Shown here: one piece after another, positions 55,453 through 59,929 of the stretch
Numbering within the stretch: position 1 is the first letter of the stretch
Layout: every line of letters begins with the position of its first letter
From: Bdellovibrionales bacterium
GTDB lineage: Bacteria > Bdellovibrionota > Bdellovibrionia > Bdellovibrionales > UBA1609
DNA length: 64,000 bases
Assembly: GCA_965261545.1 (NCBI GenBank)
Contig: CBDHDF010000006.1
Span: 224,001-288,000 of the forward strand
Direction: 5' to 3'
Position numbers and translations under genes: made by a program
The notes under the pieces: model-generated
Databases searched by the model: none
What the model was told of the DNA's origin: nothing
What the model saw: only the letters and a program-made list of their open reading frames with translations

Positions 55453-56321
55453 TTTTACCGTACTATTTGCTCGTCACTCTCGCGGAGCTTTAGACATTAG
55501 CTGCGCCAAGGAATCCTGAAAAATACTCCATTTACCTCTGCCATAGGGCTGAAGGATGCATTTGGGGTCATGCCAAAAGTGGTGGGCAGAAAATCATTCC
55601 TCAGAATCTTGTGGCATAGTCCGAGTTAAATGATGAGCAAAATAAAGACACTTGACTAAACTCTGAACGAAGAATAACTAAATCAGTACATCATCAACTG
55701 GCCGTTTTTCATTGGCGACGGCTTCTAAAAATGGCCAATTTTAATTGGCGCCTAACATCCGAGAACCTCTCTGATTTTTTTCTTCTTAAAAGACATCCTT
55801 GCTCACTTTTTTCCCTCAAAAAAACGTATGTTAATATAAAAATTAAAGAGAAACTTTCACCAAAGGGGGGACTATGCGCCATTTGAAGAAGACACAGTTG
55901 GGACTCTTTTCCCAATATCCTAACCACCAACTCAGTACAGAATTGCAGCAAATTAATAACATCATTGATCGCCATCCAGAGTTTGCCCATATGGTTCATG
56001 AAGACCTTGTTAAAGAAAAGAAAGATTCTGGTGATATTGGTATGACATCGGAGCAAGTTCTCAAGGTGGCTATTCTTAAATCCATAAGAGGTCTTTCCTA
56101 TCGTGCGTTAGCCTTTAATCTTGTCGATTCAGTATCCACCAGAGCTTTTCTGGGCCTTGAATTGGAAGAAAATTACGCTCACTCCACCTTACAGGACTTG
56201 ATTGTTCAAATAAGTGAAGAAACTTGGGGAATTATTAGCGCCTCTTTAGTTTCAGATGCAAGAGATCAAAAGATTGAGCCGTGTAAGAAAATGAGAGTGG
56301 ACAGTACAGTGACGAAATCAA

Positions 56322-56684
56322 ACGAGTCCATTACTTAATACCCCCGTCAACGACAGAGGTTTTAGAGAGCTAAGGGTCACGGACCCCTCCCATCCCCTTT
56401 ATAGGAAGTCATTCAAGGTGATTTCCATACCTAAAAATCAGAAAAAATCTACTTTTGCTTTTGTTCAATACAAGAACCACATGACGCTACGCATACCATT
56501 GGCTTCTACCAATCTGAACCCCAATCTCTACGATAGGCAGGCCCCAAGCAAACTTGGTATAGTTGCAATTCAGGAGCTAATTTCACTGACTCAACAACTG
56601 GAAGAGCAACTATGTCAATTACACCAAAAGATGTCTGGCCAAGACTGCCAAAAGAAATTCAAAAGCAAGTCATCAAAGACTTAA
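56322..56684 (+). CDS. start-less accessory ORF (VTDPSHPLY motif, tentatively DUF5372/Y4bD-like); start codon supplied from 58767 on circularisation
   Basis: Frame is open from the left junction, and the motif lies upstream of the first in-frame GTG at 56418. Confidence 0.7.
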   Translation, partial: TSPLLNTPVNDRGFRELRVTDPSHPLYRKSFKVISIPKNQKKSTFAFVQYKNHMTLRIPLASTNLNPNLYDRQAPSKLGIVAIQELISLTQQLEEQLCQLHQKMSGQDCQKKFKSKSSKT

Positions 56685-56848
56685 CTTTAGCCATTGAGGA
56701 GATTATATATGAAAACATCGGAATTGATTACACCTATTCACTTAAAGAGAAAAGCCATAATATACATCAGACAGTCGACCCCTCAGCAAGCCATCAAAAA
56801 CAAAGAAAGTCTCGACCTTCAATACTCACTCAGGCAAAGAGCTACTGA
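56612..56848 (+). CDS. small protein overlapping the recombinase start
   Basis: VWPRLPKEIQKQVIKDL helix; overlaps both neighbours. Confidence 0.55.
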   Translation: MSITPKDVWPRLPKEIQKQVIKDLTLAIEEIIYENIGIDYTYSLKEKSHNIHQTVDPSASHQKQRKSRPSILTQAKSY

Positions 56849-58754
56849 ATTAGGTTGGCAAGAAGATAGTATTGAAATTGTCGATGATGATTTGGGGATC
56901 ACAGGAAGTAGTATACAGTTTAGAGAAGGCTTCAAGAATATCCTTGCAGAAGTGACCTTGGAAAAAATTGGTATTATTCTATCGTACGATGTCACTCGTT
57001 TATCTAGAAACTGTACGGACTGGTACCAATTACTTGATCTGTGTGCTTTTAAGAATTGCCTCATTGCTGATAGAGAGTCTATTTATAACCCTTCTAATGT
57101 TAATGGAAGAATGTTACTCGGGTTTAAAGGTCAACTCTCAGAAATGGAATTATTTACGATACGCAATAGATTAACAGCAGGTCTTCTCAACAAAGCCAAG
57201 CGAGGAGATTTAGCTCTTAAATTACCAGTTGGTTTTATTCGAACAGAACAAGGTAAAGTGCTAAAAGATCCAAATAAAGATTTACAAGATCGCATAAATT
57301 TAGTATTTACTATATTCTTAAAACTGAAATCAGCCGGTAAGGTGTCGCAATTTTTTAACGATAACAACCTCTTACTTCCAAGAGTTGATTTTGTAAAAAG
57401 TATTCATTGGAAAAAAACATCCAAGGCAGCCATACTTTCTATTTTGAAGAATCCAGCTTATAGCGGAACTTTTGTATATGGCAAAGCTGAATGCCGTAGA
57501 AAAGACTTAGCTGGAAAACTTAAGTGTACAAAGCTTCCACTTAATGAATGGAAAATTGTTGTGAAAGATAAATATCCTAAATATATCGATTGGAATACAT
57601 TCTTAAAAATACAAGAAATTCTAAAAGACAACTACACTGAATATACTCGTAATAAAACAAGAGGCATACCTCGCCCTGGTAAGGCCCTCTTACATGGGAT
57701 AGTCTATTGTGGAGAATGTGGCCACAAAATGTCAGTGCAGTATAAAACAGCAACTCGATACTTATGCAACTATCTACGCCAACAACATCGGGAACCTACT
57801 TGCCAATTCATTCCTACAGATCCAATCGATGATTATGTAGTAAACGCTTTTTTTAAGGTTCTTTCCCCTGTCGAGCTAGACTTGTATGCCAAGGCTTTAG
57901 AAAATAAGTCAAAAATTGACCAAGAGGTTTACAAATCACACATTCAGCAAATTCAGCGTTTAAGGTATGAAGCTCAACTGGTAGAAAAGAGGTATCGCAA
58001 AGTAGACCCTGAGAATAGACTTGTTGCAGATGAATTAGAAACACAATGGGAAGAGGCTTTAGTAATACTTAAAAAAGCCGAAGATCACCTAGAGAGGGTT
58101 AAGAATGAACAGCGTATTCCAACTGTGATCTCTCAAAAAATGAAAAGAGAATTTTCAGATTTGAATCAAAAACTACCTTCGCTATGGGAGGATAAGATAT
58201 TGACCAAAGACATGAAAAAGAAAATTCTTAGAACATTGGTTGAAAAGGTTGTCATTCACAGAAAGAAAAGAGATATGGTTGCACTGAGAATTGTTTGGAT
58301 TGGAGGAGATACAACAGAAGCTAGCATTCCAATCAAAGTTGGATCTTTTGATGAACTGTCATCTTCTGAAACGATAAAGAAAATAATTGCGCAGCAGGTC
58401 AAGCTTGGGGTGTCTGATGAAGATATTGCCAAACTATTGACCCAAAAAGGATTCAGATCACCAATGGATACCACTTTTCTCAGAAATACTGTGAAGTCCT
58501 ATAGACTAAACAATAAAATCTATCGGAATCGAAAGCACTCTTTTCCGACCAAAGTCGAGGGAAGCCTCACAACATCTCAAATTGCAGCACTTATTGATGT
58601 TAAAGTTCATTGGATTTATCACCATATTAAACAAGGGAGGATCATTGTCAAAAAACACGAGAAAACAAAGGCTTATCTCTTTCCAGATAAGAAAAAAACC
58701 ATATCTGACTTTAAAAAACTTAAGTCCGGATCAATTAAAAAGCTACGTTACTAA
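56709..58754 (+). CDS. large serine recombinase with C-terminal HTH-like extension
   Basis: YIRQST, DDDLG.TG, RLSRN..DW..LL, CGECG zinc ribbon and VDPENRLVA.ELE..WE motifs; GAGGAG RBS. Confidence 0.95.
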   Translation: MKTSELITPIHLKRKAIIYIRQSTPQQAIKNKESLDLQYSLRQRATELGWQEDSIEIVDDDLGITGSSIQFREGFKNILAEVTLEKIGIILSYDVTRLSRNCTDWYQLLDLCAFKNCLIADRESIYNPSNVNGRMLLGFKGQLSEMELFTIRNRLTAGLLNKAKRGDLALKLPVGFIRTEQGKVLKDPNKDLQDRINLVFTIFLKLKSAGKVSQFFNDNNLLLPRVDFVKSIHWKKTSKAAILSILKNPAYSGTFVYGKAECRRKDLAGKLKCTKLPLNEWKIVVKDKYPKYIDWNTFLKIQEILKDNYTEYTRNKTRGIPRPGKALLHGIVYCGECGHKMSVQYKTATRYLCNYLRQQHREPTCQFIPTDPIDDYVVNAFFKVLSPVELDLYAKALENKSKIDQEVYKSHIQQIQRLRYEAQLVEKRYRKVDPENRLVADELETQWEEALVILKKAEDHLERVKNEQRIPTVISQKMKREFSDLNQKLPSLWEDKILTKDMKKKILRTLVEKVVIHRKKRDMVALRIVWIGGDTTEASIPIKVGSFDELSSSETIKKIIAQQVKLGVSDEDIAKLLTQKGFRSPMDTTFLRNTVKSYRLNNKIYRNRKHSFPTKVEGSLTTSQIAALIDVKVHWIYHHIKQGRIIVKKHEKTKAYLFPDKKKTISDFKKLKSGSIKKLRY

Positions 58755-59929
58755 GGGGGTATCAACATGAGTGATCAAATATTCATCATCCAACGGATGC
58801 ATCGCTTTTATATGACTGCATAAGAGTTACAGAAAGAGAATTTAAAAAAGTTCGTAAAAATGTCATGAAAGATTTTTGGCGACTTATTTCAAGAGAAGAT
58901 CTTAAGAGAGCAAAAACCTTGCTTTACAAAATTAATAATTCCAAAAATGATGCGGAAAGACTACCTTGCTATAAGGAGCTTTTAAAAATCGCTACCAAAT
59001 TGAACAAAGGATTACCTGATACCATCAGAAAGATAAAAAAAGAACAAAAATGTGTGAAGATGAATGCTTTGAAAAAGAGTCTAAAACAGTTAGAAAATGT
59101 TGCCTTCTACCTGGAAAAAATCATCTTTCAAACTCAAAAAAGAGTTATTGAGGGGAAAAAAGTATCTTCTGAAAAAAAGGTCCTATCCATCTTTGAACCG
59201 CATACAGACATTATTGTAAAGGGGCAAAGAGAAGTCGAGTTTGGGCATAAAATCTTTTTGACCTCAGGGCAAAGCAACATGATTTTAGATTGTCAGATCC
59301 CTGATGGCAACCCCGCAGACTCTGATATGTTTTTAAAAGTTATGAATTCAGTGACACAAACCTATGGGGCTTGCCCTGTAAAAGTAAGTGCAGATGGTGG
59401 GTTTGCTTCAAAAGAAAATCTTGAAGAGGCCAAAGAGATGGGGGCTAAAGATGTTTGCTTCCCAGAAAAAAAAGGAATGAAAATATTAAAGATGGTTAAA
59501 AGTGCTTGGGTCTTTAAAAATCTTCTCAATTGGAGAGCCGGAATAGAGGCTGTTATTTCATTCCTTAAGAGATGTTTTGGTATGAGAGTTGCTTACTGGA
59601 AAGGGCATGATGGTTTTAAGAGGTATGTAAAGAATGCCGTTTGTGCCTATAATTTTGTTGTCTTGGCAAGACATGAATTATCAACTGTCACCTAAATTTA
59701 TCCATTAGGAATAACAGCAATGGACCAGGTCGAAGGTGCTAAAATCTTCCAAAGGTAGGGGTGCGTCTTCAAATCGAAAAAACTAGGGCGCAAGTCGCTT
59801 AAAGACCTTTTTCCCCTTAATCTGTAGAGTTTGTGTGGCAAATCTCCAACTCTCACTCCCCCATTGAGGCATTGGGAGGCTCAATGGGGAGTGTCAGAGA
59901 ACAAAAAATGGGCCTTTCTGGACAGAAAC

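Follow-up and report, generated by a model that had tools for sequence, protein, structure and literature searches.

The stretch of DNA analysed here (64,000 nucleotides of contig CBDHDF010000006.1 of a Bdellovibrionales bacterium, assembly GCA_965261545.1; hereafter the window) contains a 2457-bp mobile element at 56323-58779, which lies inside an ISNCY transposase gene and carries a large serine recombinase and two small open reading frames (ORFs), A and B. We found that attP, the attachment site of the free element, lies inside gene A. Upon integration the ribosome-binding site (RBS), the start codon and four codons go to attR and the body of the gene to attL, and it takes the rejoined ends to restore it. 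We consider this split start very probably real and under selection, and it is conserved across phyla and deep clades of one recombinase family. The features of the element and of its site are as follows.

55874..56316, +, target to the left of the element, the 5' portion of the interrupted ISNCY transposase gene; core match, sister comparison, NF033593
56317..56322, +, attL core; the crossover falls on its AA (56321-56322)
56323..56684, +, main part of ORF A, DUF5372-like, with a beta barrel of SH3/KOW type and a helix predicted; lacks its own start codon before the conserved motif
56338..56345, +, attP dyad arm at the left end, shared with the N-T-P codons of ORF A
56612..56848, +, ORF B, 78 aa, overlapping ORF A and the recombinase gene; conservation (P, W, L, I, L, E) in the first ~32 residues
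56709..58754, +, gene of the large serine recombinase (681 aa), with Resolvase, Recombinase and Zn ribbon domains and a C-terminal extension of two helix-turn-helix (HTH) modules
58755..58762, +, attP dyad arm at the right end, doubling as the RBS of ORF A (dyad search)
58767..58779, +, ATG and first codons of ORF A at the right end, containing the attR core 58774-58779
58780..59695, +, target to the right of the element, the 3' portion of the interrupted ISNCY transposase gene; sister comparison
50130..51494, +, intact sister ISNCY transposase gene with an empty target (core 50573-50578)

An earlier note on this DNA, made from the sequence alone, had proposed an element whose accessory gene is assembled on the excised circle, and all of its coordinates were found again in the sequence. 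The interruption of the ISNCY gene is as it described, with a 6-bp core at 56317-56322 and again at 58774-58779 and the same core once, at 50573-50578, in the sister transposase. When 56323-58779 is removed, 1365 nt remain, which differ from the sister gene at 2 positions; the interrupted gene was identified as an ISNCY transposase by NF033593 (408.8 bits, cut-off 325). The right end does carry an RBS, an ATG and four codons, the ATG (58767) being 12 nt past the recombinase stop at 58754. With the ends joined through the core, an ORF of 124 aa is open from this ATG, just as had been suggested, while in the integrated state the same frame runs 18 codons into the flank and stops. The left end has no usable start ahead of the motif, since its first in-frame ATG, GTG or TTG is GTG 56418, past the HPL motif. 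The possibility, raised in the same note, of translation from GTG 56418 with no conservation upstream is contradicted by the conservation of ORF A, which starts at the left end, upstream of this codon. In the joined site, the best dyad has its centre at the final AA of the core and shows 8 contiguous matches (58755-58762 with 56338-56345); the RBS is indeed one of its arms. On the joined ring the three ORFs are chained and the non-coding DNA amounts to 12 nt. We saw no end-to-end inverted repeat of the element among the 25 longest inverted repeats listed.

The genome has 8 full-length copies of the element at 99.7-100% identity, as well as broken ones. At the target position across the genome the left end follows at 10 sites, another 47 are empty, and a single one is a variant. 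The left flank of one copy is the usual one, but its right flank comes from a different site, whose second copy (C7) shares little beyond AA with the element end. This suggests that the recombinase has acted at a secondary site. The crossover had been drawn through the whole core; the core positions hold, but we placed the exchange at the AA dinucleotide because the secondary-site copy shares little more than AA with the element, and relatives have other matched dinucleotides. A close relative of the recombinase was not found among 40 related genomes searched, the best being of the 25% identity class.

Relatives were found with an alignment query; a single-protein query found no loci. To the best 80 of 561 loci in genomes and the best 80 of 597 in metagenomes we added a plasmid locus and the window itself, which gave a set of 162, and in 159 of them the recombinase is preceded by a homologue of ORF A. 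Sixteen loci were left out before the counts, 8 cut by contig ends and 8 with E replacing H in the anchor motif; by eye, the ends of the latter are the same where present. Both ends were fixed without regard to reading frame, via near-identical copies in different flanks. Fifteen ends of this kind served to train the end matrices, in which the three ATG columns were masked. The surveyed loci are kin, and their counts are not independent trials.

The matrix search located the left end in 138 of 146 loci, in a single frame throughout, and the right end in 113 of the 138. The 25 loci lacking a right end included 22 without a recombinase stop in the locus, 2 at a contig edge and 1 without a recognisable end. 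Among the eight weak left ends, three were cut or truncated and one was mis-anchored, while the rest had other dinucleotides or fell just below the threshold (L057 was ambiguous). The ATG stands 11 nt ahead of the crossover in all 113 right ends, 99 of which were outside the training set. The earlier note had also asked if homologues keep the frame across the junction: 112 of the 113 computed joins are intact, and the exception is a frameshift further into A.

Dereplication gave 57 loci in 14 clusters at 70% recombinase identity, with pairwise identities of 45-88%. In these loci the ATG columns are 100% conserved, compared to 67, 67 and 63% at the mirror positions. The joined frame is free of stops in 57/57, while the other two frames have stops in 44/57 and 54/57. 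Distances from the crossover to the motif vary from 62 to 98 nt and differ by multiples of 3 only. A Shine-Dalgarno (SD) motif precedes the right-end ATG in 56/57 loci and an internal start in 1/57. The crossover dinucleotide is AA at both ends in 54/57 and CA at both ends once, with two mismatched cases; pairs of TT and of TC occur in further loci. The recombinase stop falls within -8 to +14 nt of the ATG of A in 48/57 loci, and A overlaps the start of B in 51 of 52. Four elements (L149, L153, L154, L156) have cargo after the recombinase, yet keep the RBS and ATG at the element end and not at the stop. In the same four, as well as in L017 and L088, an extra 360-570 bp separates the recombinase stop from the right end.

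Elements of more distant clades (31-35% recombinase identity) have a similar RBS and a start codon 14 nt ahead of a GG or TT crossover, in frame. In the cyanobacterial set L189-L195 the ends were fixed by sister copies, and in Cupriavidus L207 and a plasmid element of Sinorhizobium fredii NGR234 by exact restoration of the target motif; the ends of all these join in frame. Five more families (the L019b set, L042b/L188, L037b, L183 and L184-L186) match the -14 rule by inspection. When the crossover of distant loci was picked automatically from symmetry only, the expected site came out in 11 of 19. A loose target-motif rule gave it in 18 of 19, amid many alternatives, and we counted neither as proof.

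The NGR234 element (pNGR234a, NC_000914.2, ~33950-37270), which we take to be the one named NGRIS-4 with genes y4bA-D, resembles the window element in gene content, with small ORFs, a DUF5372 gene and a recombinase from the same family, 33% identical. Joining its ends places two in-frame starts before the crossover, GTG (-14) and ATG (-11), and its flanks restore a transposase motif. The layout shared by the two types has a DUF5372-like ORF at the left end, then one or more small ORFs, the recombinase last, and no terminal inverted repeats. The NGR234 element differs in its size (3320 bp), an extra HTH gene, a TT core and another target motif. A fourth gene (HTH/DUF6788) is also present in L207 and L211; the 2457-bp element has no room for it and represents a smaller sub-clade. 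Our literature search found no paper on the mechanism of the NGR234 element.

Several observations weigh against the account proposed below, in which A is made from the circle only and favours integration. The note had proposed a search of sequence data for the circle joint: four Logan contig sets (three of them from one sample) gave only the joint of the empty site, with the proviso that contigs drop rare forms. The junction pattern was likewise not found in the genome itself, the 162 loci, viral contigs, or 401 + 401 genomes. A lone match to it in 5 genomes proved to be a right end whose flank starts with the same three bases, and it was rejected. Only 3 of 255 database homologues of ORF A have a junction-type N-terminus, two of them less certain than the third, P0166, and RefSeq starts the DUF5372 gene of NGR234 internally. 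An in-frame ATG, GTG or TTG occurs within the left end in 27/57 loci, and a start derived from the flank in 29 of 128 integrated loci (one with an SD motif); because such starts exist, leaky or truncated expression of A from integrated copies is possible. Searches for a promoter gave 6 sigma-70-like sites, compared to 9.1 expected, and a family-wide candidate over W-x-Y codons near the end of the recombinase gene (+0.63 matches over the synonymous expectation, 38/54 loci; other Tyr bins, up to 0.45); none could be established. Finally, nothing here tells in which direction A acts.

On the other side, the alignments of P0166 with the computed joins of L114 (86%) and L037 (83%) begin at the first residue of both partners. 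Its contig, from Logan, is 2600 nt long, and the computed circles of L114 and L037 are 2569 and 2567 bp. We read the contig as a probable joined end, from a circle or a tandem, its size being about that of a circle plus an assembly overlap. The many distinct insertion sites give indirect support for the activity of the recombinase. In the integrated state an upstream stop is met before any start in 98 of 128 loci, 30/57 loci lack an internal start before the motif, and the peptide read from the right end has a median length of ~15 aa.

The products of the three genes bear on what A might do. In the recombinase, the Resolvase, Recombinase and Zn-ribbon Pfam models all scored above the cut-off, and Y19, R21 and S23 of the catalytic Y-x-R-x-S motif are invariant in 34 sequences. 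The model of the C-terminal extension (predicted local distance difference test, pLDDT, 83.3) has a homeodomain-like HTH and a MerR/HTH_17-like module, with an HTH_17 match in 33 of 55 members; the best hit of the extension in a fold search (Z 7.2, root-mean-square deviation (rmsd) 2.5, 56 residues) indicates a common fold only. ORF B is kept in 52/57 dereplicated loci with conserved P, W, L and E positions, and an atlas search returned nothing for it; it might be regarded as a candidate directionality factor.

ORF A has 231 relatives at E-values up to 0.001, whose annotated N-termini vary at random upstream of an L-N-T-P motif. DUF5372 (PF17342) was matched at E <= 0.05 by 46 of 146 homologues (best 6.3e-7), and the top atlas matches of ORF A are DUF5372 clusters (0.92-0.93, low recognition). 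The sequences thus place ORF A as an apparent distant relative of DUF5372, not a member by the cut-off. Its predicted fold is a small beta barrel with a helix (mean pLDDT 82.9). The barrel was likened to SH3/KOW domains, including the KOW domains of NusG/Spt5, with Z up to 4.7, rmsd 1.8 and 47 residues, where Z < 5 means a common fold only. Fold searches with ORF A gave no match at Z >= 5 or E <= 0.001, and a profile search for solved relatives gave none. They listed no clear match to known recombination directionality factors (RDFs) of serine integrases, a non-match that excludes nothing. No toxin or replication family appeared in the Pfam and NCBIfam scans of 146 ORF A members. In the profile search and the co-folding with the recombinase that the earlier note had proposed, the window protein had no Pfam match at an E-value of 1 and the co-fold gave a weak signal. 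The recombinase-A score was 0.58, compared to 0.00 for the best control, with a contact agreement between runs of at least 92% and a partner pLDDT of at least 68. In the calibration 116 of 157 solved pairs reached the mark, as did 2 of 215 mismatches, but scores up to 0.60 comprised only 18 solved pairs and both mismatches. The modelled complex weakly supports binding of A to the recombinase and gives no direction of action.

We propose a minimal transposable element that moves site-specifically by means of a large serine recombinase and inserts into conserved motifs of genes of other mobile elements. The recombinase would excise a circle, on which its gene, A and B form a nearly gap-free ring, and A would be made from the circle only; a transcript crossing the junction would yield A because A closely follows the recombinase stop there. 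A may then bind the recombinase and shift it to attP x attB integration or to capture of a target. An integrated copy would make B and the recombinase only, favouring excision, and B or the extra HTH modules may serve that step, so that the junction could work as a self-resetting state switch. By a narrow measure we lean toward this whole account, including the role of A in integration. The most extended form, in which a cross-phylum family of serine recombinases parasitises group II introns and DDE transposons, the junction is a translational switch, and the excision-assembled DUF5372-type protein is an integration-promoting partner, the opposite of an RDF, with direction set by the state of the DNA, is tentative, its chances in our estimate being a little short of even.

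Alternatively, A might be a factor of the excision side, similar to an RDF, which is made from the first circle and drives excision of other copies in trans or delays re-integration, producing bursts of mobilisation. The split-gene evidence fits this equally well and the weak co-fold fits either direction; RDFs of serine integrases are small recombinase-binding proteins, and action in trans is possible because the element is multicopy. On the other hand, a factor that exists only after excision cannot start excision and would be expected to oppose the integration of its own circle. Other aids to excision are at hand in ORF B, intact when integrated and conserved in 52/57 loci, and in the HTH_17-type module (33/55), and we regard an excision-side role of A as unlikely. 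The tight packing of the genes, i.e. the overlap of the three ORFs, the recombinase stop close to the ATG of A (48/57) and A over the start of B (51/52), would also suit a junction that is mainly a cis expression switch, where translation of A passes ribosomes on to B and the recombinase gene or keeps polarity from arising, the protein itself being secondary or autoregulatory. The resemblance of the barrel to NusG/Spt5 KOW domains fits such a switch, but Z < 5 marks a common fold only, and the near-invariant residues and confident fold of A exceed the needs of a leader peptide; we find this quite improbable.

Still less probable is that A leaves the recombinase untouched and protects or maintains the circle or penalises its loss, by addiction with B as the antidote or by action on the targeted intron or transposon. 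A small overlapping gene pair would fit, as would a protein that is presumably produced just while the element is outside the chromosome and its target gene restored, but the scans of the 146 members and the weak co-fold with the recombinase speak against it. That the ATG and the G-rich run are only bases bound by the recombinase, with A made from internal or flank starts and an incidental in-frame join, is hardly credible: the G-rich run is one dyad arm, half-sites of serine integrases are often asymmetric and 27/57 loci have internal NTG codons, but the ATG is invariant where the mirror bases vary, the frame is stop-free in 57/57 with no internal start before the motif in 30/57, and a mere binding base is hard to sustain because in distant clades the start moves by one codon, in frame, while the att sequences change.

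Rejoined flanks restore the D-x-x-x-F-F-D-x-V motif of a group II intron reverse transcriptase (RT), on the opposite strand, in 71 of 113 loci and in 34 of the 44 dereplicated loci whose flanks are long enough. In RT-positive loci chosen for a check (4 of 4), TIGR04416 was matched by one flank up to position 133 and by the other from 134, which again fixes the ends without regard to frame. The GG clade uses another motif of this RT, L-G-I-P, and in some cases lies in the same intron. The targets of the TT clade are motifs near the last catalytic Glu of what we presume to be the respective DDE transposase families. The window element is located a few codons past the R-x-D-S-T-V motif of the ISNCY transposase, on the sense strand. 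In most relatives the insertion is in a gene of a group II intron RT or a DDE transposase. With relatives in several phyla, the elements constitute a widespread family that targets genes of other mobile elements, which goes beyond the scope of the earlier note.

Some loci showed further variation. Two recombinase clades stand side by side in L019, L024, L037, L038, L042, L004, L153 and L156, several of them in the same RT gene with motifs ~60 codons apart. A reverse-oriented copy in an RT motif (L146:2570-5080) has TT for AA at both ends, and its joined gene is in frame. The Wolbachia chromosome NZ_OZ195521.1 has six near-identical copies (L074-L079) at varied AA sites; their recombinases have an in-frame stop near codon 565 in all six.

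The principle of an att site inside a gene of the element is already known. In the integration-dependent immunity of mycobacteriophages attP lies in the regulatory gene, the free and integrated forms give different products, and integration strips a C-terminal degradation tag, activating the repressor. Here, in contrast, integration removes a translation start. The 'suicidal' tyrosine integrases of archaeal SSV1-type elements have att inside their own gene, which is split on integration and whole when free; this has been likened to directionality control and called an exclusively archaeal trait (PMC8371274). In the window element the serine recombinase stays intact, and an accessory gene loses no more than its RBS and four codons to the other end. 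In IS110/IS1111 elements the circle junction creates a promoter, ISEc21 inserts at DDE codons of IS3 transposases, and the DEDD transposase is RNA-guided (PMC11187229). The junction described here makes a reading frame, not a promoter; a DEDD domain was not found, and the 12 nt of non-coding DNA leave no room for an RNA region (Rfam was not searched).

With elements of the Tn4451/TnpX type and multi-targeting large serine recombinases the window element shares a dinucleotide crossover and a small size with movement via a circle (PMC5704250, PMC10083194). TnpX needs no partner or RDF (PMC5704250). DUF4368 marks 63% of the TndX-like multi-targeting clade (PMC10083194), whereas the window recombinase had no DUF4368 match at an E-value of 1. 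The main text of PMC10083194 contains neither 'group II intron' nor 'reverse transcriptase', and PMC13439711 and PMC10970691 had nothing relevant. The literature search, whose coverage left most subscription papers outside, returned nothing on a junction-assembled accessory gene, on DUF5372, or on recombinase elements that hit intron RT genes. A 2011 study of group II introns in Wolbachia may mention an element inserted there. The arrangement is apparently undescribed.

The split start explains the erratic annotated N-termini of the ORF A family, in which 252 of 255 database copies are without a junction-type start, and it suggests that gene callers generally miss junction-spanning genes. The control of direction in small serine-recombinase transposons without a known RDF is the wider matter, for which the element supplies a sequence-borne switch that three genes and two 50-bp sites are enough to test. 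If the proposal is true, DUF5372 gains a function, and A would be the first state-gated pro-integration cofactor of large serine recombinases. Recombinases obtained from att-site mining may need such a partner for good integration assays. In nature, group II intron RT genes and transposases also appear to be widely inactivated by members of this family.

The genome has a very heavy load of insertion sequences, with ~60 ISNCY copies or pieces and many other repeats. An IS21 element occupies 52741-55757 of the window (istA 52941-54545, istB 54545-55327), and a second IS21 copy (G000:C11:741777-745022) interrupts an ISNCY transposase ~10 nt from the site used by the recombinase element. An unrelated large serine recombinase (28977-30611, 544 aa) belongs to a 1936-bp unit at 28655-30590 with long perfect terminal inverted repeats (~16 bp), unusual for a large serine recombinase. 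The unit has 97%-identical copies in different flanks on C10, C11 and C7, with no ORF A homologue nearby. At 43217-48766 of the window are two adjoining genes of ~890 aa, one without a Pfam match and the other with fibronectin type III repeats and a proline-rich tandem repeat. A gene of the MbnB/TglH/ChrH family (DUF692-type) followed by a DUF2063 gene, the usual pair of a locus modifying ribosomally synthesized and post-translationally modified peptides, was observed at 40599-42466.

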